Source: an archaeon GW2011_AR18
Lineage (GTDB): Archaea; Nanobdellota; Nanobdellia; SCGC-AAA011-G17; GW2011-AR18
Assembly: GCA_000806155.1 (NCBI GenBank)
Contig: JWKX01000001.1
Coordinates: forward strand, 739 to 64,738
Length of the DNA stretch: 64,000 nucleotides
Direction: 5' to 3'
In this document: positions 5,041 to 60,211 of the stretch, piece after piece
Position numbering within the stretch: the first letter of the stretch is position 1
How the letters are laid out: every line of letters begins with the position of its first letter
Translations under genes and position numbers: made by a program
The notes under the pieces: model-generated
Seen by the model: only the letters and a program-made list of their open reading frames with translations
What the model was told of the DNA's origin: nothing
The model's database searches: none

Positions 5041-6417
5041 CTAATAACAAACATATGTTTCTTCTTCTGGTAATGGTTTATACTTTAGTTTAGGACCATT
5101 TTTAGAAATTTCTTTTAATGCTTCAACTAATATATCAATATCTTTTTCTGTATTGTGTATTCCTATGCTTGCTCTTACTATCCCATAAGAAGCTAACCTA
5201 TTGCCTTTTTTTATTTGCTCTTCTATTTTATTCTGTTCTTTATCATTAATATTAAACCATCTTCTTACTAATCTATGATTACATATTGTTCCAGCTCTTG
5301 TCTCTATCCCATATTCATTTTCCAATATAGAAGATAATAATGCATGATGACAATCTTTAAGATTGAAAGTAAATGTTCCTATTCTATCTTCTTCTAGATA
5401 TGTTTCTGGTTTAACATACAAAGTTATTCCTGGAACTGTTCTTAACTTCTCTACTGCATAATCTATTAATTTTCTTTCATGATTAATAATATTATTCCAT
5501 CCTGTATTCATTATTGTTTTACAACTTGCTGATGTTGCTATTATTCCTGTAACATTCCAAGTTCCAGTCTGATGTCTTAGTTCCGAAGGTGACCAGATTA
5601 CACCTGTTTCATTTATCATGTCTATTGAACCTCCGCCAGGATCTACAGGTGAAGTTTCTAAAATTTTCTTGGGTAAAGCTAAAACGCCTAATCCAAATGG
5701 GGCATATAATTTATGTGAAGAGAAAGCTAATGTGTCTATATTATCATTTTTCATATCAATTTTCCTATGTGGTGCTAATTGTGCTGCATCTACAAATAAT
5801 AGTGCATTATGTTTATGTGCTATTTTTGAAATCTTTTTTATATTGGGGATATATCCTGTTAAGTTTGAAGCTCCAGTTATTGTTATTAATTTTAAGTTCT
5901 TGGAATATTTTTTTGCTTTATTTTCTAGATCTTTATAGTCTATTGAACCATCATCAAAAGAGTTTATATAAATAGTTTTACAACTGCCAAATTTCCATGG
6001 TAAGTTGTTTGATGTATGTTCAATGAATGAAGTTAGTACTACATCATTTTTACTGAATTTTAATAATCTTGATAATAGGTTTATTGCATTGCTTGTATTT
6101 GATGTGAAGATTAATTCTTGATCTTCTCTTAGATTTAGGAATGTTTTTATTGTTTTTATTGCTTCAGTTGCTTTTTTATATGTTATATTAGCATGAGGTC
6201 CAGCTCCCCTATGTAATGCCCCATAAGTTTGTAAAAATTCATTAACTTCTTTTAAAGTTTCTTTAAATGGTGGTGTTGTGGCTGCATTATTCAGCATTAT
6301 TATTTTTTTAACACTTCCATTCTTTAATTTTATAGAGTTATTTGTTCCAATGACTTCTGGAAGTATATTTTTCATATAATTCAACAATAAACAAGATTTA
6401 TATCCCTTATTATCCAA
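5041..6417 (-). CDS. aminotransferase class V fold PLP-dependent enzyme (cysteine desulfurase-like)
   Basis: SSHKLYAPFGLGVL PLP-lysine motif and a class V fold N-terminal region, with a roughly 60 aa C-terminal extension. Confidence 0.75.
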   Translation of the reverse strand: MDNKGYKSCLLLNYMKNILPEVIGTNNSIKLKNGSVKKIIMLNNAATTPPFKETLKEVNEFLQTYGALHRGAGPHANITYKKATEAIKTIKTFLNLREDQELIFTSNTSNAINLLSRLLKFSKNDVVLTSFIEHTSNNLPWKFGSCKTIYINSFDDGSIDYKDLENKAKKYSKNLKLITITGASNLTGYIPNIKKISKIAHKHNALLFVDAAQLAPHRKIDMKNDNIDTLAFSSHKLYAPFGLGVLALPKKILETSPVDPGGGSIDMINETGVIWSPSELRHQTGTWNVTGIIATSASCKTIMNTGWNNIINHERKLIDYAVEKLRTVPGITLYVKPETYLEEDRIGTFTFNLKDCHHALLSSILENEYGIETRAGTICNHRLVRRWFNINDKEQNKIEEQIKKGNRLASYGIVRASIGIHNTEKDIDILVEALKEISKNGPKLKYKPLPEEETYVCY

Positions 6418-9351: not shown

Positions 9352-9373
9352 GGTTCTGTAACTTAAAAGGTTG
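9352..9373 (+). repeat. left terminal inverted repeat of IS6-like element
   Basis: GGTTCTGTAACTTAAAAGGTTG. It begins with GGTTCTG, as in IS26/IS257-type IRs. Confidence 0.8.
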
Positions 9374-9646
9374 ATGAATTATTGGATAGATAGTTTTTTA
9401 AGCATAAAATTATTGATTAGTTTTATGAATAGAAACCAATGGTTAGTACTAAGCATAGGATTATTTTTAGCTGGTTCAATTTTAGTGAATTTTTCAATGT
9501 TTTGTGGTGGGTTTACTGATGAATTATTAACATCTTGTATGATACAAAGGTACGCTTTTGGCATCCCATCTATAATCATGGGTATATTAGGAGTCTTGTT
9601 TTTTATTATAGCATTGTTAGAACCTAAAAAGAAGAACTTAGATTAA
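9374..9646 (+). CDS. small hydrophobic ORF inside IS element (possibly spurious)
   Basis: 91 aa with two hydrophobic segments. It overlaps the 3' end of the transposase gene. Confidence 0.2.
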   Translation: MNYWIDSFLSIKLLISFMNRNQWLVLSIGLFLAGSILVNFSMFCGGFTDELLTSCMIQRYAFGIPSIIMGILGVLFFIIALLEPKKKNLD

Positions 9647-10478
9647 TCAAACTTAACCATTTATTCTGTCCTAGTTTTAATTCTATTAAGCTTTTCTGTG
9701 CTGGTGTTGTATTTATTCCTTGATGTATTCTTATGTAATTATACCACACTATTAGTAAATCTAGTATTGCTATTGCTGAATACTCTCTTTTTAGTCCACG
9801 CATTACTTTTACTCTTTCTCTTATTGTTCCTTGAACTCTCTCAATAATATTGTTTCTTTTATCCTTATCAGCTTTTAGTCTAGTATAACATTCTCTGTCT
9901 TGACTTTTCTTTTTCTTTCCCCATGTTTTACGATATGCTTTCATGTATGCTGGAAGTTTATCAGTAAATAATTTTATTGGTGGTTGTTTTACTTTCATGA
10001 AGAACTTTCTAGCTTCTTTACTGCTTCTCTTAGTTGAATAATGAGTAGCTACCAAAAACCTTGTTCTTGCATCTACAATATCCCAATAATAGTTCTGTTC
10101 ACCTTTACATTTTATGAATATCTCATCAGCATGATATACTCTGCTTAATTGAGGTTCTAAATTGTCTGTAAAAGATTTTATTAGTTTACTATACTTTATT
10201 AGCCATCTCCATACACTCATATGGCTCACTCCTTGAGGAGTAAACTGTCTAACATGACTTCTTATCTTTCTAAGGCTCATTCCATTAAAATACAAATCCA
10301 AACAAGATGTAATAAGTTCTTTTGATTTTCTCATATGATAAAAACCATCATTCAAAGTAAAGAACCTTTTACATTCTTTGCACTTATAACGTTGCTTAAT
10401 TCCGTTAAGTGTTTGCCTTTTAGACCATTTAACAATACTCTTAGAACCACAAAACCTACATTGTATATTCTCTTCCAT
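9624..10478 (-). CDS. IS6 family DDE transposase with N-terminal zinc finger
   Basis: YHADEIFIKCKGEQNYYWDIVDARTRFLV matches the IS6 DE...K..G...Y.W.A.D signature. N-terminal CxxC...CxxC as in archaeal IS6 transposases. C-terminal NNIIERVQGTIRER ... IRIHQG. Confidence 0.8.
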   Translation of the reverse strand: MEENIQCRFCGSKSIVKWSKRQTLNGIKQRYKCKECKRFFTLNDGFYHMRKSKELITSCLDLYFNGMSLRKIRSHVRQFTPQGVSHMSVWRWLIKYSKLIKSFTDNLEPQLSRVYHADEIFIKCKGEQNYYWDIVDARTRFLVATHYSTKRSSKEARKFFMKVKQPPIKLFTDKLPAYMKAYRKTWGKKKKSQDRECYTRLKADKDKRNNIIERVQGTIRERVKVMRGLKREYSAIAILDLLIVWYNYIRIHQGINTTPAQKSLIELKLGQNKWLSLINLSSSF

Positions 10479-10627
10479 AGAATATTATGGTACCGCCAGT
10501 TTATATATCTTACGGTACCATAATTATGGCGCAAAATACAACTTTATCTTTTATATAACTTATTTATCGTCTATTAACATTTTGCGCAAAACAAAGATTT
10601 AAATAGAAGAAAGGCTCTATTTTTAGC

Positions 10628-11695
10628 ATGACATGGGTAAAGCCAAAGGGACATTCTAAATCAAGAATCAATTGGGCAGGAGATGTTTTAATTAATACTG
10701 AATCCACTGAAGAAGAAAAAATACTTGCAATAGAAATATTAGACAATTGGAGAGCAATACACAGTTATCCAATGCACATTTTTAAGAAAAGATTAAAAGA
10801 AAAATCTCGACTTTTAGATAAGAACCTATTAACTGTTCAAAGACTTAAACGTGTTACTGCTATTCTAAATAAACTAAAAAGAACGCAAACAAGTACTATG
10901 AATCTTTCACAGATGCAAGATATTGGCGGTTGTAGAGCCGTCTTGTCTAACGTTGCCCTAGTGAGGGATTTACACGAGAAGTATTACTTAAAGGAAAATT
11001 TTAAGCATAAAAAAATGAAAACACAGGACTATATCTCTAATCCAAAAAATGATGGTTATAGAAGTCTTCATTTAATTTATAAGTATAATACTGATAGAAA
11101 AGGAAAAAAATACTATAATGGATTACTTATAGAAATTCAGATAAGGTCAAGGTTACAACACCTTTGGGCAACAGCAGTTGAAACAGTTGGCTTCTTTACA
11201 AGACAGGCAATTAAATCTAATGAAGGACATCCAGATTGGGCAGAATTTTTTAAATTGATTAGTTCAGCATTTGCTAAAATGGAGAATTGCCCATATGTTC
11301 CAGATACTCCACAAGATGAAAAAGAATTATATACTAAAATAAAAGAAAAAGAAAAAGCATTGAAAATTATAGATAAATTAAAAGCATGGACAAATACAAT
11401 GAGACTTTTAGATGAAAAGATTAAAGCTAAAGATAAACATAAGGTAGAGTTTTTCTTACTAGAATTAGATATTGTTGGTAGAAAATTAGGAATTTTAACC
11501 TATACAAAGGAACAAGAACAAAAAGCTATAGATGATTACTCTGCACTCGAAAAAAGACATAGTGGTGCGAAAGACTATGATGTAGTACTTGTCGGGGCAG
11601 ATACAAGTAAGGATTTGAAAAAAGCTTACCCTAATTATTTTTTAGATACTGGAGACTTCTTAATTTATCTCCAAAAAATTATTAACAAATATTAA
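10628..11695 (+). CDS. RelA/SpoT-homolog synthetase-domain protein (small alarmone synthetase / toxSAS-like), cargo of IS element
   Basis: RLKRVTAILNKLKR, DIGGCRAVL, DYISNPKNDGYRSLHLIY and IEIQIRSRLQHLWA match the nucleotidyltransferase motifs of the (p)ppGpp synthetase domain. There is a roughly 150 aa coiled-coil-rich C-terminal extension and no HD hydrolase domain. Confidence 0.75.
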   Translation: MTWVKPKGHSKSRINWAGDVLINTESTEEEKILAIEILDNWRAIHSYPMHIFKKRLKEKSRLLDKNLLTVQRLKRVTAILNKLKRTQTSTMNLSQMQDIGGCRAVLSNVALVRDLHEKYYLKENFKHKKMKTQDYISNPKNDGYRSLHLIYKYNTDRKGKKYYNGLLIEIQIRSRLQHLWATAVETVGFFTRQAIKSNEGHPDWAEFFKLISSAFAKMENCPYVPDTPQDEKELYTKIKEKEKALKIIDKLKAWTNTMRLLDEKIKAKDKHKVEFFLLELDIVGRKLGILTYTKEQEQKAIDDYSALEKRHSGAKDYDVVLVGADTSKDLKKAYPNYFLDTGDFLIYLQKIINKY

Positions 11696-11697
11696 TA

Positions 11698-11862
11698 CTA
11701 TTCTTTATCAATAATTATTCTGTGATTTTCAATCCTTGCTTTAAGTTCTTTTCCAAAAAAGTTGGACTGTTCTACAATATCTTTAGGTAAATTCAGAATA
11801 TACTTTGAATATTCTTTATTGTCTACCTTCTTTGATAGTACCTTTATTATTTTCATAATCAT
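11698..11862 (-). CDS. small AbrB/SpoVT-like ORF (54 aa), candidate antitoxin
   Basis: Manually translated: MIMKIIKVLSKKVDNKEYSKYILNLPKDIVEQSNFFGKELKARIENHRIIIDKE. Resembles swapped-hairpin antitoxins (VapB/MazE-like). Convergent with the RSH gene and inside the IS. Confidence 0.35.
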   Translation of the reverse strand: MIMKIIKVLSKKVDNKEYSKYILNLPKDIVEQSNFFGKELKARIENHRIIIDKE

Positions 11863-11925
11863 TTAATGTACAACCAGTATTTATATTTTTCTGTACCATA
11901 AAAAATTTTTAAGTTTTTCATCTAT

Positions 11926-11947
11926 CAACCTTTTAAGTTACAGAACC
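11926..11947 (-). repeat. right terminal inverted repeat of IS6-like element
   Basis: CAACCTTTTAAGTTACAGAACC, the exact reverse complement of the left IR. Confidence 0.8.
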
Positions 11948-11955
11948 CTTATTTT
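11948..11955 (+). repeat. target site duplication (right copy) CTTATTTT
   Basis: Identical 8-mer immediately outside both inverted repeats. Confidence 0.7.
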
Positions 11956-11960
11956 AAAGT

Positions 11961-12383
11961 TTATTCTGCTATTAAGTTTCCGTATCCCATTCCCATTGAG
12001 CATGAGAATTTGTATGTTCCTGGTTTTTTTATTGTTAGTTCCAATGTATCTGTGCTTGATATTAAATACTCCGATATTCCTAAACTTCTTATTGTGAATG
12101 CTCTATAGCATCCTGTTACACTGTCATCTAATGTTATGCTTATTTTCTGTCCTGCTTTTACTCTTATCTGATTTGGATAATAATTATAGTTCTTGAAACC
12201 TATTACAATATTTTGCACATCAGCTGTTTCTTCATTTATATTATTTTCATTGACAGGAATTTCTTTTTCAGTATTAGTGAATATAAAATATCCTCCTATT
12301 ATTATGATTATTATTATGCCTAATATTACTGTTGTATTCTTCATTGGAATATTCCACCTCTTGGGCCGTAGATTATTATCCAT
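11961..12383 (-). CDS. cupredoxin-like domain protein with N-terminal signal anchor
   Basis: YYPNQIRVKAGQKISITL ... GTYKFSCSMGMG resembles the small-blue-copper / EfeO-like cupredoxin fold. Adjacent to the copper ATPase cluster. Confidence 0.45.
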   Translation of the reverse strand: MDNNLRPKRWNIPMKNTTVILGIIIIIIIGGYFIFTNTEKEIPVNENNINEETADVQNIVIGFKNYNYYPNQIRVKAGQKISITLDDSVTGCYRAFTIRSLGISEYLISSTDTLELTIKKPGTYKFSCSMGMGYGNLIAE

Positions 12384-13024
12384 GTTGTTATTGAGATTAA
12401 TACTATTGTAAATATTATTGTAAATAGGTGATCATCTTTTTTCTCTCTCTCAGTTTCTTTTGTCTCATTATATACCATGTAATTTAGTTTTATCATTATT
12501 ATTGAACTTATTATAAATATTAGTATTCCAGCAGTTTTTAGATGGTCATTTAATAGCATGACTGATGTCATTGCTCCCATCAATCCTCCCATGAATCCTG
12601 CCATTATTCCTTCCATTGATCCCATTATCCCGCAGGATTTTCCTGTCCATACCCCTATTATTATTCCTATTATTACACCTAAGAATCCTCCGTAGAACAT
12701 TCCATTTGTTGAAGCAACATAAAATCCTATTAAAAATGATGATAACATGCCTAATGTCATTCCTATCATCATCCCGCTCATGCATGGGAATTCTTTGTAT
12801 GCTCTTACCTGTCTTATTGCAGGTGTTATTATTGCATAGCTTAAAGCACTAAAAAATAAATAAAATCCATATTTTGGTATTATGCTCTCTATTGTTTTTA
12901 ATTTCAGATAATATGCTATAAATAAGAAGATGAATGATGTTAATAAAGAATAGAACATTGTTATTAGTAATTCTCCCTCTACTCTATTGCCGTTTAATTC
13001 TTTTACAAAATTTTTGAATGCCAT
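12341..13024 (-). CDS. Met-rich polytopic membrane protein (putative copper-handling)
   Basis: Multiple GM/MxxM repeats (GMMIGMTLGM, MGSMEGIMAGFMGGLMGAM) within TM helices. Located between copA and the cupredoxin gene. Confidence 0.5.
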   Translation of the reverse strand: MAFKNFVKELNGNRVEGELLITMFYSLLTSFIFLFIAYYLKLKTIESIIPKYGFYLFFSALSYAIITPAIRQVRAYKEFPCMSGMMIGMTLGMLSSFLIGFYVASTNGMFYGGFLGVIIGIIIGVWTGKSCGIMGSMEGIMAGFMGGLMGAMTSVMLLNDHLKTAGILIFIISSIIMIKLNYMVYNETKETEREKKDDHLFTIIFTIVLISITTWIIIYGPRGGIFQ

Positions 13025-13025
13025 T

Positions 13026-14970
<1,945 letters not shown>

Positions 14971-14978
<8 letters not shown>

Positions 14979-15189
14979 ACTCCAGTTTTGTTGCTGTATA
15001 TCCCGCTTTTTTTACTGCATTTTTTATATCTTCTTCTTTGACATTGTCTTCAATTTCAGCATATCCTTTTTTCATTATCACATTTACTCTTATATTTTTT
15101 ATTCCGTTTATTTTAGATAGGCTTTTCTCTATATTTGAAGCACATGATGCACAATGCATTCCTTGTATGTAGATTACTATTTTTTTCAT
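14971..15189 (-). CDS. copZ: heavy-metal-associated (HMA) domain copper chaperone
   Basis: GMHCASCASNIEKSL = GMxCxxC metal-binding motif. 72 aa, overlapping the copA start. Confidence 0.85.
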
Positions 15190-15419
15190 TTTTTTCCACC
15201 CAATTGTTTAATTAACCAAATTATAAACAATATTAGAGCTGCTGCAAAAAGAGTCATTAATAACCATCCAAATAATGGCATATATCCAAATCCTGAATAA
15301 AATCCTCCCATCATCCCATAGTTTCTAAAACCCATCATTCCATAACCTCCAAATAATGGTATTATAAATATTAAGATTATTGTTAAAATAATTATTATTG
15401 TCACGTTTTCATTTTTCAT
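15186..15419 (-). CDS. small Gly/Met-rich membrane protein
   Basis: 77 aa. GGYGMMGFRNYGMMGGFYSGFGYM between two hydrophobic helices. Co-oriented in the cop cluster. Confidence 0.4.
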   Translation of the reverse strand: MKNENVTIIIILTIILIFIIPLFGGYGMMGFRNYGMMGGFYSGFGYMPLFGWLLMTLFAAALILFIIWLIKQLGGKK

Positions 15420-15421
15420 TT

Positions 15422-15619
15422 TTATTCCTTATTTTTTATATTAAATGCTGTATGTATCCAGCACCATCCTATGAAACTCTCTATTAATGCTATTATTCCA
15501 ATAATTGTAATTATCCAGTTTATCCATATTGTATTAAATTCTGGTCTGAATGGTCCTAATAGCCAGAATGCTAAAGCAAATCTTAATACCCTGTCAGTTT
15601 TTCCTAAGTTTTTTTTCAT
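15422..15619 (-). CDS. DUF2892 family (YgaP-like) membrane protein
   Basis: MKKNLGKTDRVLRFALAFWLLGPF ... IGWCWIHTAFN matches the DUF2892 pattern. 65 aa. Confidence 0.6.
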   Translation of the reverse strand: MKKNLGKTDRVLRFALAFWLLGPFRPEFNTIWINWIITIIGIIALIESFIGWCWIHTAFNIKNKE

Positions 15620-15993
15620 TTTTTTACCTCTTTGTTTTTTGTTTTACCATGCAGTATATGCACGCAATATTGTGACATGTGTTCATCTATTAGCTCCATC
15701 AATGGGTTTATTGTCTTTTTGTTTAGTTTATAATATCTGTATTTTCCTTCTATCTCTGATTTTACAAAACCACATTTTTTTAATCTTGCTAGATCATGTG
15801 ATACTGCTGTCTGATTCATTCCTAATTCTTTGATTATCTGTGTAACATTCTTTTTTTCTTTTCTCAGCATATTTATTATTCTTAGTCTTGGTTCTGACAC
15901 TAATGTTCCAAAGAATATTTTATAGCTTCCGTAGATATCTTTCTCACTAAGACAATGTTCATGTGATTTTCCCAGCATATTTTTAGTTATCAT
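15616..15993 (-). CDS. ArsR/SmtB family metalloregulator
   Basis: wHTH region LSEPRLRIINMLRKEKKNVTQIIKELGMNQTAVSHDLARLKKCGFV. First gene of the minus-strand cop cluster. Confidence 0.8.
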   Translation of the reverse strand: MITKNMLGKSHEHCLSEKDIYGSYKIFFGTLVSEPRLRIINMLRKEKKNVTQIIKELGMNQTAVSHDLARLKKCGFVKSEIEGKYRYYKLNKKTINPLMELIDEHMSQYCVHILHGKTKNKEVKK

Positions 15994-16276
15994 ATGAGAA
16001 AGCGATACATATAAGTATTTAAAGTTTATTATAAAAAATAGTATTATTTAATTACATTATTTTATGATAATTGTGCAAAAACAACTCTCTGAAAATGTTT
16101 TGTAATCTCAGTGCTTTTTTGAGTGTGTTTTTTCTCCTGACATCCAGATATTTTTGATTATATGGCTCGTTTTCCATGTTTTTTACTCCTTCTTTGGTTT
16201 TCCGAAGATATAAGCTCTGTAGTCATGTTGTTGCCAAAACCCAAAATTTATAAATAAATCACAATATCGAGGTTAT

Positions 16277-16506
16277 AGACGCCAAGGTTTTGTTGCCTTT
16301 GCTTTTTTCTGTTTGTTTAGTTCTTTTGAACCTTATTGGATTGTTTTATTTCATCTGAGCATTTTGTTTGTGCCAGATATTTTTGTGCTACCATGTTTAC
16401 TTTTGTCAACAAGCTATAATGCTTGTAAAATGTTTTATAAGACTATAATGGATATAAAGTATTTAAGCTCTTCCAAGTTTTTTGTAACCTTGGTGCCATT
16501 GTATAT
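16277..16506 (+). ncRNA. candidate structured ncRNA A (unknown family)
   Basis: TATA-like box at about 16254-16261, then AGGTTATAGACGCCAAGGTT at the predicted start. A 12-nt terminal helix GACGCCAAGGUU/AACCUUGGUGCC (one mismatch) closes a roughly 230-nt region. No convincing ORF inside. Confidence 0.3.
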
Positions 16507-16579
16507 AAAATAACAGATGCTATTGAGAAGTGGTTTTTTGTATAGCAACATTTAAATAATGTTCAAACTCTATTTTTAT

Positions 16580-16834
16580 ATGGCTAAAAAAGTAAAAGTA
16601 AGTGAAGATGAAATGTATGCAACAATCATGGCTAAGATTGGTGAATTAAAAAAATCTGTTGAAAAATTTGAAGAAAATTTTAGAAAATATGGTAGATCAA
16701 TGTTAGGTCCCGCTGCATCTGGGCAATCAGCTGAAATAGTTAAAGGTCAAGCAAGTAGCATAGCAGTTCAAGCCGCAGAATTTAGTGATTACGTGCAAGA
16801 GGTTAAAGTTATAAATCCCCATTTGGATAATTAG
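16580..16834 (+). CDS. small hypothetical protein
   Basis: ORF beginning MAKKVKVSEDEMY with a TATA-like box about 60 nt upstream. Confidence 0.35.
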   Translation: MAKKVKVSEDEMYATIMAKIGELKKSVEKFEENFRKYGRSMLGPAASGQSAEIVKGQASSIAVQAAEFSDYVQEVKVINPHLDN

Positions 16835-17053
16835 TTCTATATTTTTATGTTTTCATGTTTGTGGTCTTGTTTGTTCTACAAAGTTTATATAGTAAATTTC
16901 CCAATAATCTAATAAGTTAAAAAAATGAAAGGTGAAACAAAGAAAACAAAAATTTAGAAAAAAATAGAAGAGAATGTTCCTTACAAGACATTTAATACTT
17001 GTAGAACAAAAGACCTCACATAGCGTTAATTTTATAAATAAAACCAAATCCGT

Positions 17054-17231
17054 AGGTTACAGACGCCAAGGTCGCCTAACCTGGTATGGCACAGGATTGC
17101 TATAATAGTTTTGCAATCATCCTGCGTCCGCAAGGACTTGGGGGTTCAAAAATCATTTAAAGCACTATCAAGAATTAAGCTGTAAATGTTTGATAGTCCC
17201 CCTCTTGGCGTTTTTCTTTTTATATAACGCC
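17054..17231 (+). ncRNA. candidate structured ncRNA B (paralog of A by 5' motif; unknown family)
   Basis: TATA-like box 17032-17045, then AGGTTACAGACGCCAAGGTC. The 5' ACGCCAAG pairs perfectly with CTTGGCGT at 17215-17222, followed by a T-run. Internal hairpins include CAGGATTGC...GCAATCATCCTG and GTCC-GCAA-GGAC (GNRA loop). Confidence 0.35.
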
Positions 17232-17265
17232 TGTTTTGGTAGAACGTTTACTTTTTAAGTAACGC
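17211..17265 (+). repeat. 55-bp exact direct repeat copy 1 (promoter/operator module)
   Basis: CCCTCTTGGCGTTTTTCTTTTTATATAACGCCTGTTTTGGTAGAACGTTTACTTT is identical to 19949-20003. It contains the palindrome GGCGTT/AACGCC around a TTTATATA box. Confidence 0.85.
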
Positions 17266-17427
17266 CCAAGGGAGAACGTTGGTATGATGTTTTTGTTCTT
17301 AATTTGTGTGCACGTTGTACGTGCAGACATTATATATTGTTAAAACAGAGTTTTTCATAGGAGAAAAAATGCTTGAGAAAAACTGTTTATATATTCATAA
17401 AAAGTAATAAATATGGGTATTCTTATA

Positions 17428-19163
17428 TTATTCTTATGAAGTATTATTTATTGTTAGTTTTTATAGTTGTTTTTCTAGTTTCTTGTAGCAATAATAATTT
17501 AAAAAATTTTAGTTATTGTCAGGGAGATAATGATACTAATGAATATATTGAGTTTTCTTGTCAGAAGGTTGTTAATAATTCCTGTATTGTTTCATTAAGT
17601 GATTATAAGCCTTGTAATCTTACTGATTTAACTTTTGTTGTTGTTGGTTATAGTTCCTTGAATCCTTCTCAGGGTAATTTTATTAATATTAGTGCTTTTG
17701 TTGTAAGTAGAGGTCCTTCTTTTAATGATAATTTTGGTATTTCATTTTATGTTAATATTTCTTATCCTGATGGATCTGTTGTTAATGAATTAATTTCTAG
17801 ACAAGAACATAGTATAGTAAAAGTTTCTAATGAATCATTATGGGGTAGTAATACAGTTTGGAAAGATTATGAAGGATATCATTATGGTGAGAATGGTTTT
17901 GTAATGATAAATGCTTCATATAAAATAAAAGGTTATGGTTTTCATCAGTTTTATGAAGTGTTAGATGAAGATAATAAGATAATTGAAGCTAATGAAAATA
18001 ATAATTTTTATTCTAGAAAAATGTTCGTTAATCCAGTAAGTGCTTTTATTAATATTACAGGTGTTTTTAATGATTATAATAAAACTGGTAGTATTGATAA
18101 GAATGTTTTTGATTATTTAAAAAAGGTAGTTTATTGTAATAGTATTATTGATTGTGATATTAACACTTTTTTTATTACTAAAAAAGAGATTAAAAAAATT
18201 AAGGATTATTTAATTATAGATATTAATTTTACAAAGCCTTCTAATGAAGAATTTTCTGTTATGATAGATAATTTTTTTAATAATACTTATTGTTTTAATA
18301 AAGCCGATAATAAGTTATGGTATGATGAATATTATAAGATAGATAATCCATATAGGTATGAAGAAGTTGATATTGGAAGGATTTATGATAATAATTGTAA
18401 TGATTTTAATATTTCATATAAAGATACAATTTGGCGTTATAAGAGACTTTCTCCAAATCCAGGCTTAACTCTTATGAAGATAGAAAGTAATATTACACAA
18501 TCAATATTGATTAATGCTATAAATTATTATAATAAGAATACAATATATAATATGGTCTTGAATTATTCAATATTTAAAGTTAATGATAATTATATAATAC
18601 ACACTATAGAGACAGATGCTATTACTATTAAGGATAAAAGATTGTGTTATGATAGTCCATTATTTTATGAAGTATATAAAGTTAATAAGGAAGATAAAAT
18701 ATTAACAAGGATTAATACAGTATATACAAATGAAACAATTAATAATTGTGATAAAAAAGATATCACTCCAACGCTTAATAATATAAAGTTTTCTTATAAT
18801 CTAAGTATAATAAAATGTCCAGAGTTCACAGATGTAAAAAAGATTAATTTAATTGGAGATGAGTATATAGAACTATTAGAACAACAAGGGGATAACCTAT
18901 TTGATAATATGCTTGATTACACAATTAATGGTAACAATGTAGAATTATGGACTGCTGCTGGGAAAGGAACACCATGTAATAATGTTAAATACTATATATC
19001 AAAAGAAAAAAATGACATTCACATAAATAGAGAAGATTTAGGATATGAAGGTGCATGTGTTCAAGTAGTTAGCAGTGATTGTTTGGATATTAAAATGACA
19101 TTACCTATAGGAAAATATAATATTTATATGATAAGTATGAATAAATCAATAGAAATAAAATGA
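17428..19163 (+). CDS. secreted Asn/Tyr-rich protein with lipobox-like signal peptide
   Basis: MKYYLLLVFIVVFLVSCSNN is a signal peptide with LVSC. 578 aa, low complexity, no catalytic motifs. The ORF track extends to 17373 with a TTG. Confidence 0.55.
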
Positions 19164-19370
19164 AGAATTCTCTAAAGACTTTCTCTGAAACTGCAGAGAC
19201 TATTGAAGAAGTTAAGGTTATATATGAAAAAATAGAAAAAGAAAAAATATTATGGAAACAAGCGAAACTATAATTTAGTCATGGTTCTAATAAAGTTCAT
19301 TTGAGTTTTTAGAAAATTATTCAATATTTTTACAGTTAAGTATTTAAACTCTTATACCTATTATATCTTT

Positions 19371-19592
19371 ATGAAAACTAAGAGAACTTTTAATGTTGTT
19401 ATAGAGCAAGGAGAAGATGGTTATCTCATTTCTAGTGTAGTTGAACTTCCTGGTTGTCATACTCAAGCTAAAACATTAGATCAGTTGATGGAAAGAACAA
19501 AAGAGGTTATATCATTATACCTAAAATGCAAAGATCCTGTAGATACAGAAGTTAAGTTCATAGGTTTACAGAAAGTAGAAGTCGAGGCTTAG
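19371..19592 (+). CDS. hicB: HicB family antitoxin (UPF0150)
   Basis: FNVVIEQGEDGYLISSVVELPGCHTQAKTLDQLMERTKEVISLYL matches HicB/UPF0150. Confidence 0.8.
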   Translation: MKTKRTFNVVIEQGEDGYLISSVVELPGCHTQAKTLDQLMERTKEVISLYLKCKDPVDTEVKFIGLQKVEVEA

Positions 19593-19595
19593 ATA

Positions 19596-19823
19596 ATGAA
19601 TAAAGTTCCACTCTTGACAGCAAGAGAAGTGATTAAAATTCTTAAGAAAATGGGTTTTGAATTAAAAAGACAGGAAGGAAGTCATATGTTTTTTGAACAT
19701 CATGATGGAAGGACAACAACAATACCAAACCATCCTGGAGAAGAATTAGATCGTGGATTATTAAACAAAATAATCAAGCATGACCTACAAGTAACAAGAG
19801 AAGAATTTATGGGATATGTATAA
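19596..19823 (+). CDS. hicA: HicA family mRNA interferase toxin
   Basis: GFELKRQEGSHMFFEHHDGRTTTIPNHPGEELDRGLLNKIIK matches HicA (YcfA-like). 4 nt after hicB. Confidence 0.8.
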   Translation: MNKVPLLTAREVIKILKKMGFELKRQEGSHMFFEHHDGRTTTIPNHPGEELDRGLLNKIIKHDLQVTREEFMGYV

Positions 19824-19948
19824 TTTTAGTTCTTGCTACTTTTTGGCAGCATCGTTATTTTTATATATTACTTAAACTATATTTGTTATTATGAAAAGTC
19901 TCTGTATTAATCATATGTTTTAAGAACCGATGCATTATACCTGGCTTT

Positions 19949-20003
19949 CCCTCTTGGCGTTTTTCTTTTTATATAACGCCTGTTTTGGTAGAACGTTTAC
20001 TTT
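19949..20003 (+). repeat. 55-bp exact direct repeat copy 2 (promoter/operator module)
   Basis: Identical to 17211-17265. Lies about 85 nt upstream of the AbrB-family antitoxin gene. Confidence 0.85.
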
Positions 20004-20088
20004 GACATTCTAAACCAATAAATACAAAAGTTTTATATAGTTAGTAAGATATATCTTACTTGTGGAAGCTGAGATTGATATAACAACA

Positions 20089-20334
20089 ATGAGTTCTAAG
20101 GGACAGATAGTTATACCTAGTAGTATGCGTAAAGATTTTGAAGAGGGAGAAAAGTTTATTATAATAAAGAAAGATAAGAAGTTTATTCTTAAAGAACTTA
20201 AATCGTTAAGCAAGACTTTAGAGGAAGACTTAATTTTTGCTAAAAGAACTGAAGAAGCTTTAGAAAGACATTCTAAGGGACAGTTTAAATCAAGCACTAA
20301 AGAAGATTTTTTGAAAGAACTTGACAAATGGTAG
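20089..20334 (+). CDS. SpoVT/AbrB-family antitoxin
   Basis: MSSKGQIVIPSSMRKDFEEGEKFII is a swapped-hairpin DNA-binding domain. Overlaps the downstream RelE-like gene by 7 nt. Confidence 0.7.
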   Translation: MSSKGQIVIPSSMRKDFEEGEKFIIIKKDKKFILKELKSLSKTLEEDLIFAKRTEEALERHSKGQFKSSTKEDFLKELDKW

Positions 20335-20579
20335 TTGAACATATAGATAGAGATATTCATTTCGAGAAATTATTCCAAAAATTAGATGGTTCAATTAAAG
20401 ATAAAGTGAAGAAGCAGATAATAAAGATTATTGAAAATCCAGAAATTGGAAAACCAATGAGGTATACAAGAAAAGGAACTAGAGAGGTGTATGTTAAACC
20501 TTATAGATTATCATATCTTTATTTAGAAGAGGAAAATAAGATAATATTCCTAGATTTATACCATAAGGATGAACAATAG
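20328..20579 (+). CDS. RelE/ParE family toxin
   Basis: 83 aa. GKPMRYTRKGTREVYVKPYRLSYLYLEEENKIIFLDLYHKDEQ is typical of the RelE/YoeB fold C-terminus. Confidence 0.75.
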   Translation: MVVEHIDRDIHFEKLFQKLDGSIKDKVKKQIIKIIENPEIGKPMRYTRKGTREVYVKPYRLSYLYLEEENKIIFLDLYHKDEQ

Positions 20580-20591
20580 GTTTTTGTTTTT

Positions 20592-21794
20592 TTAGAAATT
20601 CTTTAATATCTTTTTAACTTCTTCTACAAATGTTTGTGCTTCCTCTTCTGTATTATACAGGTATAGTGATGCTCTTACGCTTCCATCTATTTTTCTTGAA
20701 TTATACCAGCTGTGCACACAATGTCTTCCGCTTCTTGTTAATATGTTCTTTGAACTATCTAATATGTTTGCTATATCATGATTATTCATTCCTTTTATAT
20801 TGAATGAGTATATTGAACTTCTTTTCTCAGCTTCTTTTGGTCCTATCAGTTCTATTTTATCACTATCTAATCCTTCTGTTATTATCTTATTTAATTTTAT
20901 CTCATGTTTTTCTATTTTTTCTAATCCTATTTTTTTCAAGTATATTATTGCCTCTCCTAATCCTATTATTCCTGCATAATCCTGCAATCCTGCTTCATAT
21001 TTCATTGGTAATTCTTCTATTGTATATGAATCATATGTTGAATCAGTAACTGTGCTTCCACCTACATTATATTGTTCATTTTCTTCTAATAATTCTTTTT
21101 TTCCGTATAATATTCCTGTTCCTGTTGGTCCTAGCATTTTATGTCCTGAAAATAATAAATAATCTATATCTAAGTCTTTTACATCTATCTCTTTTGATGG
21201 AGCTAGTTGTGCTGCATCTGCTATTATTTTTATATTTTTTTTATGCAGTATTTTTGTTATCTCTTTTATTGGGTTTGTAACTCCATCTATGTTTGATCTA
21301 TACACTATTGATGCTATTTTTGTTTTTTCTGTTATTGAATCTTCTAAATTCTCTATATTGAATGTATTATCAGGATTTGTTTTTATTATCTTTAATTTTA
21401 TTCCTTGTTTTCTTAATTTTAGCCATGGTATCAGGTTTGAATTATGTTCTTTGTCTGTTATTAATACCTCATCCTCTTTTTTTAGCCCTATTGTATCTGC
21501 TAAGAGATTTATTCCCTCTGTTGTATTTCTTGTGAATATTATCTCTTCCTGTTTTTTTGCATTTATGAATTTTTTAACTTCCTCTCTTGTCTTATTTACT
21601 TCAGTTATGACTCTTTCTGCTAGTTGATGTGAACTTCTTCCAGAACATGCTGTATACTCTTTATAATACTCATTTATTTTTTCTATTACCTGCACTGGCT
21701 TTAATGACATGCATGCACTGTCTAGATATATTATTTTATTATTTAATATTGGAAAATCTTTTCTTATCTTGTTTACATCATATCCTAGTATCAT
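20592..21794 (-). CDS. sufS: cysteine desulfurase (SufS/CsdA-like, class V aminotransferase)
   Basis: FSGHKMLGPTGTGILYG PLP lysine motif, RSGRHC near the C-terminus. 400 aa. Confidence 0.85.
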   Translation of the reverse strand: MILGYDVNKIRKDFPILNNKIIYLDSACMSLKPVQVIEKINEYYKEYTACSGRSSHQLAERVITEVNKTREEVKKFINAKKQEEIIFTRNTTEGINLLADTIGLKKEDEVLITDKEHNSNLIPWLKLRKQGIKLKIIKTNPDNTFNIENLEDSITEKTKIASIVYRSNIDGVTNPIKEITKILHKKNIKIIADAAQLAPSKEIDVKDLDIDYLLFSGHKMLGPTGTGILYGKKELLEENEQYNVGGSTVTDSTYDSYTIEELPMKYEAGLQDYAGIIGLGEAIIYLKKIGLEKIEKHEIKLNKIITEGLDSDKIELIGPKEAEKRSSIYSFNIKGMNNHDIANILDSSKNILTRSGRHCVHSWYNSRKIDGSVRASLYLYNTEEEAQTFVEEVKKILKNF

Positions 21795-22705
21795 TTAAGT
21801 TCCTCATCTATTATATTCTTGAATGTCCTATATGGTTTTGGTCCCACTATTACTTTGTCATTTATGAAGAATGTCGGTGTCCCTCTTACTCCTGCTTTTA
21901 ATCCTATCTCATTATCTTTATCTGTCTCATTTTTATATTTCTTTGTTTCTAGGCATGTATTATATTGTTCAGTATCTATTCCTAATAATAATGGTATTTC
22001 ATCAAAGAATTTTTCAGTCTGGTTTTCTTGTTGTTCAAATACTAGTTCATGATATTTTTCATATGCATTTTGTTCTAGTACGCAGTTTGACGCTAATGCT
22101 CCTATTATACTATAATTATGATGTGGTATATAGAATGTCTTGAACTGTAAGTTTACTCTTCCTTTATAATTTTCTAATACTTGTTTTACTGTCTCTTCTG
22201 CTTTTTTTGTATATGGGCATGAATAACATCCGAATTCTATTATTGTTAATTCAGCATTTTTATCTCCAATTATTGGATCATCTTCCTCTATTGTTGGTAA
22301 TATAATATCTTTCTGTGTCTTAGTATCTATCTCTGATGTCTTGCTGTTTGCTCCTGTTGGGTCTAGCATGCAGAATCCTGTGTTTTCTGGCCCGTTGCAG
22401 TTTCCATATTCTATATAATTATATATTCCTATTCCTGTATAATATAGACTTGCTAAAAATAATAATAGTATTATGAATGAGAATATTTTATAATTATTAT
22501 AGAAAAATGAAGCTGTTCTTGGTGATTTCTTCATCACTTTTCCTGTTATTGTAGATTTTATTCTCTCATCCAATCCTGATTGACATTTTCTTAATGTTGC
22601 TGTCTTGAATAAGCATTCTAATGAATCTTTTGTTAATTTTCTGTACTTGACACTGAATATGCTTAATATTGCGAATATTGGTAAAGCTAGTATACATAAT
22701 ACCAT
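21791..22705 (-). CDS. membrane-anchored thioredoxin-fold thiol-disulfide oxidoreductase (DsbA-like)
   Basis: Two N-terminal TM helices, then a DsbA-like domain with CYSC (CxxC) and cis-Pro GVRGTPTFFIN. Confidence 0.6.
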   Translation of the reverse strand: MVLCILALPIFAILSIFSVKYRKLTKDSLECLFKTATLRKCQSGLDERIKSTITGKVMKKSPRTASFFYNNYKIFSFIILLLFLASLYYTGIGIYNYIEYGNCNGPENTGFCMLDPTGANSKTSEIDTKTQKDIILPTIEEDDPIIGDKNAELTIIEFGCYSCPYTKKAEETVKQVLENYKGRVNLQFKTFYIPHHNYSIIGALASNCVLEQNAYEKYHELVFEQQENQTEKFFDEIPLLLGIDTEQYNTCLETKKYKNETDKDNEIGLKAGVRGTPTFFINDKVIVGPKPYRTFKNIIDEELK

Positions 22706-22788
22706 GATTTCGCAGTGTATAACACATTAATAACTATTCCTAATCTGTTTTTAATAAAGTTTATATTGTAATAATAAATTAAAATAAT

Positions 22789-23676
22789 ATGGGTTTATTG
22801 GATTTTATTAGGTCTGATGAGGTTTTGGCTGAGAATGTTCAGTTAGATGATAAAAAAATAGTTTCTATTTGGAATAATTATCTTAGGACTTTTGAAGAGA
22901 AAGGAAAAGTAATTTTTGCTATAAGAGAAGATAACATGTCTCAGTCTATTATAAAATTAAGAGTATTGTTAGATACAGAATTGATTGATATTTCACAATC
23001 AGGAGATTTAGAAGAAGATATTATTGAAGATTTAAAAAATTTAGAACATTCTGAAAATATTAAAAGAATTCATAAATTACAACGTTGTCTTGGTTATGCT
23101 GAAACAACTTATGAATATGTTCATGCTTTAATGAAAAAATTGTATTCTATTATTATTCTTGAAGTAAGATGTGCTAATAAAGAAAATTTTAATATTAGTG
23201 ATGTAGATGAATTGAAAAATCTTTATGATCTTGAATTGGAAGTTGTTAATAAGACAGAAAATTTAGACCAGACAAAGAATAGAGAATCTTTTCAGGAAGT
23301 ATTCATATCTTTAGTCATTGGTGAAAGAATTATTAAGAGAATGAATAAGACTGAAAAAAGACTGATGAGAAGTATGAAAAGAGTTATGGATAAAGTTTTC
23401 TCAACAGATGAAGATGAACAAATTAGTGAAGGTTTAATTCATGATTGGGTTGCTGATGTAGTTAATGCAATAGATGATAAAATAGGTGAGGGGATAGCTG
23501 ATCTTTTATTTAGTGGTGATAATGAAGATATTAATCTTGAATTTGTGAATAAGCCTCAGTTTGTTGATTTAGTAAGAGAAAAAAGAAGAGCTTTGACTCA
23601 AGATAGAATTTCTGAAGAGAGTATTAATGTTTTTGTTCATCTTTTTAGGGAATGGTATAATCATAATGACAAATAG
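22789..23676 (+). CDS. hypothetical protein
   Basis: 295 aa, acidic, with no recognisable motif. Confidence 0.4.
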   Translation: MGLLDFIRSDEVLAENVQLDDKKIVSIWNNYLRTFEEKGKVIFAIREDNMSQSIIKLRVLLDTELIDISQSGDLEEDIIEDLKNLEHSENIKRIHKLQRCLGYAETTYEYVHALMKKLYSIIILEVRCANKENFNISDVDELKNLYDLELEVVNKTENLDQTKNRESFQEVFISLVIGERIIKRMNKTEKRLMRSMKRVMDKVFSTDEDEQISEGLIHDWVADVVNAIDDKIGEGIADLLFSGDNEDINLEFVNKPQFVDLVREKRRALTQDRISEESINVFVHLFREWYNHNDK

Positions 23677-23706
23677 TTTTATATAATAGTTTTCAAGGAT
23701 TAGTTT

Positions 23707-24246
23707 ATGCCTTACGGTTTTACTCACATGGTTTTTTCTTGGCTTCTTGCTAAGCTTTTCTCTTATTTTAAAAAGATTAAGTTCTCTTCTTGGCAGTGGT
23801 TTGCTCTTATTTTTGGTTCTATTTTTCCTGATATTGATTTTGTTGTCCAATGGACTTTTCATTTGAGAATTCATAAGGTTTTTACTCATAGTCTTGTAAT
23901 GATTGTTTCTGGTTTTATTCTAGCCTGTATTGGGTTATTTATTATAAAAAAGATCTTCAATCAGAAATTCAGGATTTATCATGTTGCCTTGTTCTTCTCT
24001 CTTGGTATTATAAGTCATATTTTCCTTGACATGGCTTCTGGTTGGCCTGGTGTTGGTTTATTATGGCCTTACAAGACTGTATGGGTTTATTTTTTCGGTA
24101 TTGTTCATGGATATAATCCTTATTTATTAAGTGAAAAAACTATTGAAGATGTTATCAGGACTCTTAAATGGGCTATTTTTGATATTGGTCTTGGTGCTTT
24201 ATGGATCTTCTATCTTATGTATTCTAAGAAACTTAAAGAACTTTAA
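23707..24246 (+). CDS. membrane-bound metal-dependent hydrolase (YdjM/DUF457 family)
   Basis: HMVFSW ... GSIFPDIDF ... HRIHKVFTHSL ... ISHIFLD pattern of the YdjM family. Four TM helices. Confidence 0.55.
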   Translation: MPYGFTHMVFSWLLAKLFSYFKKIKFSSWQWFALIFGSIFPDIDFVVQWTFHLRIHKVFTHSLVMIVSGFILACIGLFIIKKIFNQKFRIYHVALFFSLGIISHIFLDMASGWPGVGLLWPYKTVWVYFFGIVHGYNPYLLSEKTIEDVIRTLKWAIFDIGLGALWIFYLMYSKKLKEL

Positions 24247-41595: not shown

Positions 41596-41705
41596 CGCCC
41601 TGGCCGAGATTTGAACTCGAGTTATGACCTTTCGTTGACAAAACATTATATAAAATAAAGCTTCATCTCGACAGGGTCAGGTGCTGACCGCTACACTACC
41701 AAGGC
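41596..41705 (-). tRNA. tRNA-Asp (GTC) with canonical-position intron (~38 nt)
   Basis: GCCTTGG-TA-GTGT-AGCGGTCA-GCAC-C-TGACC-CTGTCG[intron]A-GGTCA-TAAC-TCGAG-TTCAAAT-CTCGG-CCAGGGC-G. Confidence 0.75.
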
Positions 41706-59782: not shown

Positions 59783-60048
59783 TAGTAGGCACGCCCAAGA
59801 GTGGATACACTAATCTTCACAGGTTGAGTCCTAATCTTTCCTCTACCCCGCTACCCTGTAAGCGTTATCTTGAATGCTTATTGTTGCTTTGTTCCCAATC
59901 TCACAAGTTTCACAATCAAAACAACCAGACAGGACAGGATATCACTGTAGTTATTAGGGCCTGCAAAAATTAATGCATCGCCTCTTGGACTTCGACTCCA
60001 TCTAAGACCGTTTATGGTTACAGGTGCGGCCTAAACACCCAGCCTAGC
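59783..60048 (-). ncRNA. ffs: candidate signal recognition particle RNA (7S RNA)
   Basis: Minus-strand reading contains the Alu-domain-like GGGUGUUUAGGCCGCACCUGUAACC (UGUAAC motif). A helix-8-like GUUGUUUUG ... CAAAGCAAC contains AGCA. Termini pair (UAGGC/GCCUA). No ORF is coherent across the region, and there are T-runs at both ends. Confidence 0.45.
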
Positions 60049-60211
60049 TTTTTTTAGTCCGAATGAGAATGGATATTTGTCTTCTGTTCCTTCCTCGCTT
60101 AATATCATTGTCTTATGTCCTTTAAATTCTCCTGTTTTTGCTGTCATTTTATTTTTCTCCTTATGATTTTATTTAAGTTTTAAATTTAGTAGATTATTAT
60201 ATACTTTATGA

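Follow-up and report, generated by a model that had tools for sequence, protein, structure and literature searches.

A 55-bp direct repeat in the archaeon GW2011_AR18 as the probable integration scar of a small element at an unannotated tRNA-Ser(GCU) gene

What does the exact 55-bp duplication that brackets a lipoprotein gene and a toxin-antitoxin pair in the archaeon GW2011_AR18 represent? The DNA analyzed here, referred to as the window, is a 64-kb stretch (64,000 nucleotides, positions 739 to 64,738 of contig JWKX01000001.1), and the 55-mer CCCTCTTGGCGTTTTTCTTTTTATATAACGCCTGTTTTGGTAGAACGTTTACTTT occurs in it as exactly two copies, both on the + strand. An earlier note on this DNA took the 55-mer for a shared promoter/operator and also for a cassette boundary made by recombination. 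The latter view holds, as the repeat does mark such a boundary. We consider it probable that a small integrative element entered the 3′ end of a tRNA-Ser(GCU) gene by recombination and that the two copies are its left and right attachment sites (attL and attR). The copies are:

17200-17254, + strand: repeat copy 1, attL-like, with the last 11 nt of the tRNA, its terminator, a putative core site and the first arm motif
19949-20003, + strand: repeat copy 2, attR-like, a tRNA 3′-end fragment with the tRNA body absent upstream

The duplication is exact at 55 of 55 positions and its length is exactly 55 nt, since the flanking bases diverge immediately on either side; copy 1 had been placed at 17211 but truly starts 11 nt earlier. 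Positions 1-11 of the 55-mer (17200-17210) are the last 11 nt of the tRNA, comprising three T-stem Cs, the acceptor strand TCTTGGC and the discriminator G, and positions 12-22 (17211-17221; TTTTTCTTTTT) are the tRNA's oligo-T terminator. Oligo-T runs terminate archaeal transcription. The TTTATATA box (17220-17227 in copy 1) and the palindrome GGCGTT/AACGCC (17207-17212 and 17226-17231) pointed out earlier occur in each copy. The sequence flanking copy 2 on its left (…CCTGGCTTT) shows no relation to the tRNA T-arm. Because copy 1 overlaps the end of the tRNA and its oligo-T run and copy 2 lacks the tRNA body, the two have the character of junction repeats. The search for more copies that the note had called for found none in the window with up to three mismatches allowed, and exact scans of viral and metagenome collections with a 33-mer and a 34-mer of the repeat gave no match, so the 55-mer is not a generic repeat family; the population is evidently missing from those collections, which makes the scans uninformative on excised forms.

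The tRNA gene that supplies the start of the repeat consists of the following parts:

17065-17210, + strand: unannotated tRNA-Ser(GCU) gene, with exons at 17065-17102, 17119-17150 and 17197-17210
17103-17118, + strand: intron 1, 16 nt, at the canonical position 37/38
17151-17196, + strand: intron 2, 46 nt, in the T-loop at position 59/60

ARAGORN reported no tRNA anywhere in the window when run on the raw sequence, and Rfam found nothing relevant in 15900-20200, either at the gathering threshold or at E<=10, because of the introns at 37/38 and in the T-loop at 59/60. Upstream of copy 1 lies a GC-richer segment that can be read as a class II tRNA interrupted by two inserts. ARAGORN called tRNA-Ser(gct) once both had been removed, and with the T-loop insert alone removed it detected the anticodon-loop intron unaided. 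Read from the sequence, the 37/38 intron forms a TTGC/GCAA helix with 3-nt bulges TAT and TCA. A scan with the 5′ exon retrieved 16 related loci, and every complete orthologue, spliced at the same two sites, gives an 84-nt class II tRNA, a form obtained from seventeen orthologues (locus L053 was left out because its contig stops within the gene). One orthologue, L047, encodes the 84-nt form without introns and thereby provides an independent check on the splice sites. Cloverleaf pairing holds in 240 of 240 cells across ten distinct orthologous sequences, with compensatory changes at 4-80, 5-79 and 61-75, although the acceptor and T-stem helices are partly paired by construction, as the splicing script demanded their pairing. 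The pre-tRNA folds at -46.8 kcal/mol (z = -3.8). By these sequence features 17065-17210 is an archaeal intron-containing class II tRNA-Ser gene, with splicing predicted. An intron at 59/60 is already known from the pre-tRNA-Cys of ARMAN-2, and under-predicted, disrupted tRNA genes are documented in DPANN archaea (PMC5829648).

Several other tRNA genes have a similar appearance. The tRNA-Ser genes of L052 and L055 carry a third insert of 30 nt in the 3′ acceptor strand, a tRNA-Asp-like gene of L082 (~1250-1370) has an insert of ~40 nt near positions 5-7, and a tRNA gene of L064 (~9690-9860) has a T-loop insert of ~73 nt; ARAGORN missed all of these. The sole tRNA call made by Rfam in the window, at 41596-41705 on the - strand (44.3 bits, 110 nt, presumably intron-bearing), was likewise unreported by ARAGORN. 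An archaeal signal recognition particle RNA at 59783-60054 agrees with the origin of the window from an AT-rich archaeon.

Directly beyond copy 1, the sequence resembles the start of an integrase gene. The relevant features are:

17207-17231, + strand: putative recombinase core site, GGCGTTTTT, CTTTTTA, TATAACGCC; 9-nt inverted arms matching at 7 of 9 positions around a 7-nt spacer
17224-17303, + strand: element arm, termed 'a', with four AACG motifs at 17226, 17243, 17261 and 17275
17305-17407, + strand: relic of an integrase 5′ region, with hairpin, TATA box, TTAAAACAGAGTTTT, GGAG, ATG and stub, identified by MAFFT alignment with intact leaders

In L058, a tyrosine recombinase gene (PF00589) begins ~160 nt past the orthologous tRNA-Ser gene on the same strand. 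Intact integrase genes also directly follow an Asp-like tRNA gene in L082 and an intron-bearing tRNA gene in L064, and L044 has a more distant integrase in the same place after tRNA-Ser. Window positions 17255-17407 align to the L058 region and to the leaders of the full-length integrases of L064 and L060, sharing the (T)AACGCC(C) motif, TTTGTRT followed by a TGCA…TGCAG hairpin, a TATA box, TTAAAACAGAGTTTT (identical in L060), GGAG and ATG. In the window the hairpin TGCACG-TTGTA-CGTGCA occupies 17309-17325, the TATA box ~17329-17337 and TTAAAACAGAGTTTT 17340-17354, and the ATG at 17369 opens a 12-codon stub, MLEKNCLYIHKK, that ends in a stop (17369-17407); N-termini of the family read MLEK(E/Q)DIH…. 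That arm, hairpin, TATA box, leader and integrase start follow right after copy 1 and are homologous to intact genes argues for attachment sites. Since the frame stops after 12 codons and the window has no other integrase, we regard it as a decayed relic and not as part of a functional element.

The integrase family numbers 2,142 homologues at E<1e-20, mostly of ~400 aa and from metagenome-assembled genomes (MAGs) of Woesearchaeota and Nanoarchaeota. Its catalytic R/K/HxxR/H/Y residues are invariant and a CxxC…CxxC zinc ribbon lies at the C-terminus. Among characterized proteins its nearest relatives are integrases from haloarchaeal plasmids and from tailed and pleomorphic proviruses of archaea, including Geoglobus acetivorans pleomorphic virus 1 (BK065156), ThalV2 and Caudoviricetes sp. 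vir524, at 30-35% identity over 76-97% of the length; the kinship is distant, and the window element keeps no viral or plasmid genes. A profile scan of IMG/VR returned only relatives at 23-37% identity, several of them at contig ends, and a single-sequence scan of the same database with family member P0122 gave no match.

Intact members (L060-L064, L082 and L084) share a module of the integrase, two to three small open reading frames (ORFs) on the opposite strand and a ~340-aa HTH_24/AsnC-type protein; L060-L063 additionally have a second, divergent 447-aa integrase and a reverse-transcriptase gene nearby. An upstream recombinase, 'int15', was considered as the integrase of the element and rejected, as it is Xer-sized (~280 aa) and syntenic with ORF142 and tRNA-Ser in five lineages; it is also unrelated to the second integrase in L060.

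The palindrome noted earlier is contained in a longer arrangement. Its left half coincides with the acceptor end and discriminator of the tRNA, and the 25-nt site GGCGTTTTTCTTTTTATATAACGCC, found in copy 2 at 19956-19980, is organized as 9+7+9 nt. This is the geometry of a tyrosine-recombinase core site, and we propose it as a putative one. A 9+7+9 site starting from the terminal GGCG of the tRNA recurs in L058 (GGCGTATTC, ATTCTAC, TGATACGCC; 7/9) and in L015 (6/9), and at the different tRNA of L082 direct reading gives GGCGCCATA, TTTTTAT, TATAACGCC (7/9), with a right arm identical to that of the window. Recurrence of the palindrome at the same position, beside integrase genes at tRNA genes of other archaea, points to a recombinase site. 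At tRNA-Ser loci without an adjacent integrase the score is mostly 1-4/9, L046 being an exception, so that on sequence comparison the geometry appears to track the presence of the integrase family, which supports the integration model. At least four AACG motifs on one strand within 93 nt occur nowhere else in the window, their cluster lying in the 93 nt past the tRNA, and L058, L064 and L082 have the (T)AACGCC(C) motifs in collinear order. The arm motifs are candidate arm-type integrase binding sites.

The genes between and beyond the copies are:

17436-19163, + strand: lipoprotein of 575 aa, Asn-rich, with signal peptide and LVSC lipobox
19160-19273, + strand: 37-aa ORF after the lipoprotein gene
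19371-19592, + strand: HicB-like antitoxin, N-terminal domain only (HicB_lk_antitox 25.8 bits, below the cut-off of 27)
19596-19823, + strand: HicA toxin, 3 nt from the HicB-like gene (HicA_toxin E = 8e-23, 80.7 bits, cut-off 27)
20089-20334, + strand: AbrB/MazE-like antitoxin (MazE_antitoxin 23.0 bits, slightly below the cut-off of 24.7)
20328-20579, + strand: ParE/RelE toxin, overlapping the AbrB gene by 7 nt (ParE_toxin 32.5 bits, cut-off 23)

The gene order is as described in the note, with the lipoprotein gene and hicBA between the copies and the AbrB-ParE pair (within 20004-20591) after copy 2, outside the repeat pair. Judged by their domain matches, the pairs are a HicAB type II system and a ParE/RelE toxin with an AbrB/MazE-fold antitoxin; where the note had counted at least three toxin-antitoxin-like modules, we could verify only these two in the stretch. 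The lipoprotein has no Pfam family at threshold, matches only its own cluster among 5.8 billion proteins and eight representatives at E<1e-10 among 1.84 billion, and by these searches is effectively an orphan ORF (ORFan).

The closest comparison comes from the Nanoarchaeota MAG H52-bin077_1 (L015) and its near-twin L049, whose SufS is 84% identical to that of the window. Both have the same tRNA gene with both introns and one 55-mer with four differences, and lack the integrase stub, lipoprotein gene, hicBA and copy 2. In L015 the 55-mer is followed by 49 nt matching 17255-17303, 49 nt matching 19284-19330, and then AbrB-ParE-SufS. Right after the ParE stop codon and 6 nt before the SufS stop, L015 and L049 carry TGACTTT followed by the 20-nt sequence ACCTCTTGGCGTTTTTATTTT, which in L015 exactly repeats that genome's tRNA end, at a distance of 753 bp, and stops within the putative 7-nt spacer. 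AbrB-ParE of L015 is therefore itself bracketed by att-like 20-nt repeats, and the left edge of the repeat lies at tRNA C63/C64 in both the window and L015. At the spot of the distal L015 repeat all that remains in the window is 20580-20591 (GTTTTTGTTTTT), which may be a remnant of an older attR.

Comparison across the 16 related loci shows that the 3′ side of the tRNA gene is non-syntenic and the 5′ side, with an Xer-like recombinase and ORF142, is conserved, a pattern that fits an integration hot spot. In L056 the tRNA-Ser gene is followed directly by rhodanese/UPF0176, methyltransferase, HhH-GPD and NAC genes, which in the window begin ~7 kb on, at 24199; SufS, DsbA, ORF295 and YdjM (20592-24246) may thus also be an addition in the lineage of the window and L015. 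More distant relatives have unrelated DNA past the tRNA gene.

From the observed repeat, tRNA gene, integrase relic and homologous intact arrangements elsewhere, we infer core-site function, order of events and a tandem-array history as follows. A tyrosine integrase of the family common in Woesearchaeota and Nanoarchaeota would bind a core site made of the terminal GGCG of the tRNA and its T-rich terminator on one side and the TATAACGCC arm of the element on the other, and strand exchange would take place in the 7-nt spacer. The 3′ end of the tRNA would be rebuilt from element sequence and a tRNA-end fragment left at the far border. The predicted junctions are …GATAGTCC-55mer-GACATTCTAAACC for the target site (attB) and …CCTGGCTTT-55mer-TTAAGTAACGCCC for the element (attP). 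The inserted 2,749 bp would have lost the integrase except for its leader and 12 codons and would carry the ORFan lipoprotein gene and hicBA as a non-autonomous relic. AbrB-ParE past copy 2 is most likely left over from an earlier element at this site, in which case two related elements would have stood in tandem at tRNA-Ser, the older one with AbrB-ParE and the tRNA-proximal one with the decayed integrase, the lipoprotein gene and hicBA. Later deletions would then have occurred separately in each lineage.

The 5′ side of the tRNA gene also contains a duplication:

16244-16288, + strand: upstream copy, with TATA box, leader and the first 8 nt of the tRNA; identical at 45/45 positions to the native L015 promoter
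16289-17027, + strand: block between the copies, with ORF84 at 16580-16834, part of a 784-bp block
17028-17072, + strand: tRNA-attached copy, diverged (36/45)

The exact core shared by the two copies is AGACGCCAAGGT. Since the upstream copy matches at 45/45 and the attached copy at only 36/45, a 784-bp insertion appears to have displaced the tRNA's own promoter and provided another in its place. A single element with its own tRNA gene was considered as the source of both the 5′ and the 3′ duplications and discarded, its topology being unfit for one crossover.

A further observation concerns the same promoter. In L053 (C687J35174_10036243), a different organism from the same sample, a 56-nt tRNA-Ser promoter/leader at 5173-5228 is 100% identical to window 16233-16288. 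L053 is 80% identical to L045 and L050 upstream of the tRNA, and the segment replaces an L045-type promoter. The match suggests promoter-segment exchange between lineages, or is possibly due to a chimeric contig.

Farther upstream, ORF142 is reduced in the window to its first 39 codons (16061-16177, - strand). ORF142 and an Xer-sized recombinase are the upstream neighbors of tRNA-Ser in L015, L049, L056 and L058, and L044 keeps ORF142. Window 9600-16000 instead holds a metal-resistance cluster (ArsR, YgaP-like, HMA, P-type ATPase and cupredoxin) beside an IS240-family transposase. A 49-nt inverted repeat (76% matching; 9352-9400 and 11899-11947) brackets this transposase (9624-10478, - strand) and a RelA_SpoT-domain gene (10628-11695, + strand), and the segment is possibly an insertion sequence that carries a passenger gene.

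Among known archaeal systems the locus is closest in layout to pNOB8-type (type II) integration, summarized in PMC3293823 from She et al. (2004) as an unsplit integrase beside a reconstituted tRNA on the same strand, with tRNA-end direct repeats at the borders. Measured against that summary, border repeats, reconstituted tRNA and unsplit same-strand integrase are intact in L058, L064 and L082 and present as a relic in the window, where border repeats go with an intact tRNA gene and a fragment of it, and the integrase remnant lies next to the tRNA on the same strand, off the repeat. An intact integrase, and with it autonomy, and an excised circle or attP junction were not found. The likeness described is one of layout; the window integrase is a 12-codon stub, its family has a C-terminal zinc ribbon, and the repeat holds only 11 nt of tRNA, the rest being terminator and downstream sequence. 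The island PYG1 of Pyrococcus yayanosii and similar Thermococcales islands have 44-bp direct repeats, one of them a partial tRNA gene/attR (PMC9897764), and PYG1 likewise has a complete tRNA gene at one end and a fragment of a tRNA at the other (repeat of 44 vs. 55 bp). At ~21 kb it is more complete than the window segment, which spans 2.7 kb, has no integrase and carries only the lipoprotein gene and a toxin-antitoxin pair; the window's tRNA fragment of 11 nt is also too short to be mis-called as a tRNA. SSV1-type (type I) elements integrate into tRNA-Arg through a 44-bp att within the integrase gene (PMC3293823), and share with the window integration at the 3′ part of a tRNA gene and a direct repeat of similar size. 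In contrast to the split SSV integrase, whose parts overlap the repeats, the window integrase starts ~115 nt past the repeat and its homologues are unsplit, so the type I arrangement is not seen here. A casposon-type or transposon target-site duplication was rejected, as 55 bp is too long and terminal inverted repeats are lacking.

In Caldiarchaeum subterraneum, mobile elements disrupt tRNA genes (PMC3293823). The window resembles that case in having an intron-bearing tRNA gene flanked by tRNA-end fragments, including an upstream 5′ fragment, and in the heterogeneity of close relatives; it differs in that the introns here are old and conserved across the lineage. A proposal by Randau and Söll, to which PMC3293823 and PMC4090602 refer, holds that introns in tRNA genes serve to break up att sites. 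At this locus the att repeat lies wholly within the 14-nt 3′ exon and the sequence past it, so that the intron was no obstacle to integration.

Several observations weigh against integration by a recombinase at this site. The window copies are identical at 55/55 positions, yet the orthologous L015 copy differs at 4/55, so recent integration or gene conversion is needed to account for the identity. The 55-nt identity extends 44 nt beyond the tRNA, and the L015 repeat is only 20 nt. L015 is not a clean empty site, since ~100 nt of the insert persist there as two short pieces, 'a' and 'b', and its junctions fall at microhomologies (GTTCT(T)AAT at the first, TAAA or a T-run at the second) and look like deletions rather than site-specific events; the contiguity of arm and hairpin in L058, L064 and L082 is a further argument that it is L015 that lost material. 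Homology between the left flanks of copy 2 and of the distal L015 copy was dropped, as they share only TGRCTTT (7 nt), no better than shuffles. By tblastn, the window has no intact integrase and no other integrase-like remnant (a match within the lipoprotein ORF at 18738-18908, E = 0.02, was judged compositional), and no attR was found within 10 kb of intact family members (L060, L064, L082 and L084). Lastly, no excised circle, attP junction or clean empty site was present among 46 contigs, at least 20 contigs of the population all carrying the insertion. Exact-protein look-ups of ParE and HicA, made for an empty site among near-identical strains, returned identical contexts only. The strain comparison proposed in the note thus found the segment uniformly in the population, and its partial absence in L015 and L049.

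Variation among strains bears on the same question. Across 5 kb, inter-strain differences are confined to positions 35-39 of the 55-mer, in one copy or the other (L002/L011, L007 and L003/L012): copy 1 shows T35C or N, copy 2 shows CA..T plus 1 nt, and the base of L015 at position 35 is C. These differences could reflect inter-copy conversion or assembly noise at repeats. At position 17 both window copies have C and both L015 repeats have A. Together, the identity of the copies, the position-17 pattern and the polymorphisms at 35-39 suggest recent integration or gene conversion between the copies.

An origin without any recombinase, either by Campbell-type insertion of DNA carrying a downstream copy of tRNA-Ser or by segmental rearrangement in an old island followed by gene conversion, would suit the absence of an integrase from the window, the microhomology-mediated differences from L015, the reach of the identity 44 nt beyond the tRNA and the promoter swap at the 5′ side of the same gene, and variation of the kind seen at positions 35-39 and 17 is typical of conversion. 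We nonetheless consider such an origin unlikely, as it leaves unexplained why the integrase leader and start codon lie exactly where intact homologues place the gene, why the two different repeat pairs of the window and L015 share their left edge in the tRNA 3′ exon, and why other tRNA targets show the recombinase-type inverted-repeat geometry again, L082 with the identical arm on the element side.

A more far-reaching proposal retains the integrase. In these Nanoarchaeota and Woesearchaeota, a family of zinc-ribbon tyrosine integrases may have adapted its att site to the short 3′ exon and terminator left at tRNA genes by conserved T-loop introns, as a counter-move to intron protection, and integrase-less toxin-antitoxin cassettes at tRNA-Ser(GCU) may still be exchanged or homogenized, mobilized in trans. 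The exactly identical repeats, the polymorphisms confined to them and the 5′ promoter swap hint in this direction, although we hold the proposal as a whole to be doubtful and rather improbable.

That the 55-mer is a duplicated promoter/operator putting lipoprotein-hicBA and AbrB-ParE under one regulator, plausibly the AbrB-type antitoxin, appears very improbable to us. Both copies do contain TTTATATA and a 6-bp inverted repeat, each upstream of + strand genes, and archaeal promoters use TATA boxes of this type. However, the 55-mer starts with the tRNA 3′ end and terminator, to which the left half of the palindrome and the T-run respectively belong, and the copies lie 182 nt ahead of the lipoprotein start codon and 86 nt ahead of that of AbrB. 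Nearer TATA boxes are available to the lipoprotein gene (17387-17394), hicB (~19341-19348) and AbrB (20031-20039), and copy 1 is separated from the lipoprotein gene by the integrase relic. A perfect 18-nt palindrome, AGTAAGATATATCTTACT, at 20043-20060 between the AbrB TATA box and start codon (20089) is a better candidate than the 55-mer and is likely the autoregulatory operator of AbrB-ParE; it is kept in L015 with one central change, and AbrB-ParE of L015 retains this proximal promoter and palindrome with no 55-mer adjacent. L058 and L064 do not preserve the TATA string at the homologous site, whereas L058 and L082 do preserve the ACGCC arm, and no toxin-antitoxin genes were called among the adjacent genes in L064 and L082.

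An assembly mis-join or a chance match in AT-rich DNA can practically be dismissed: apart from the general repeat risk of metagenome assemblies and one contig (L009) that ends 55 nt upstream of copy 2 nothing speaks for it, no 55-mer duplicate arose in 100 shuffles, and over ten independent assemblies of one groundwater population, made from different samples and by different assemblers, have both copies with identical flanks (NCBI MAG contig JAGVZP010000004.1 among them), which rules out an assembly artefact.

With integration at tRNA-Ser(GCU) as the probable origin of the repeat, the locus illustrates how an essential tRNA gene can escape standard tRNA finders by means of a T-loop intron, as do its orthologues and other tRNAs in the lineage. 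As long as the gene goes unrecognized, the repeat is mistaken for regulatory DNA and the genome seems short of a tRNA; once it is recognized, a supposed regulatory novelty becomes an ordinary integration scar, an event of a well-known kind. Additionally, the analysis defines a candidate 25-nt core site for an abundant, uncharacterized family of archaeal integrases, and both ends of the tRNA-Ser gene emerge as recombination points. The locus is a small, well-delimited case of DPANN genomes gaining and then eroding mobile DNA at a tRNA hot spot, in a pattern in which integrases disappear, a rapidly evolving surface lipoprotein and toxin-antitoxin pairs persist, and elements probably accumulate in tandem.

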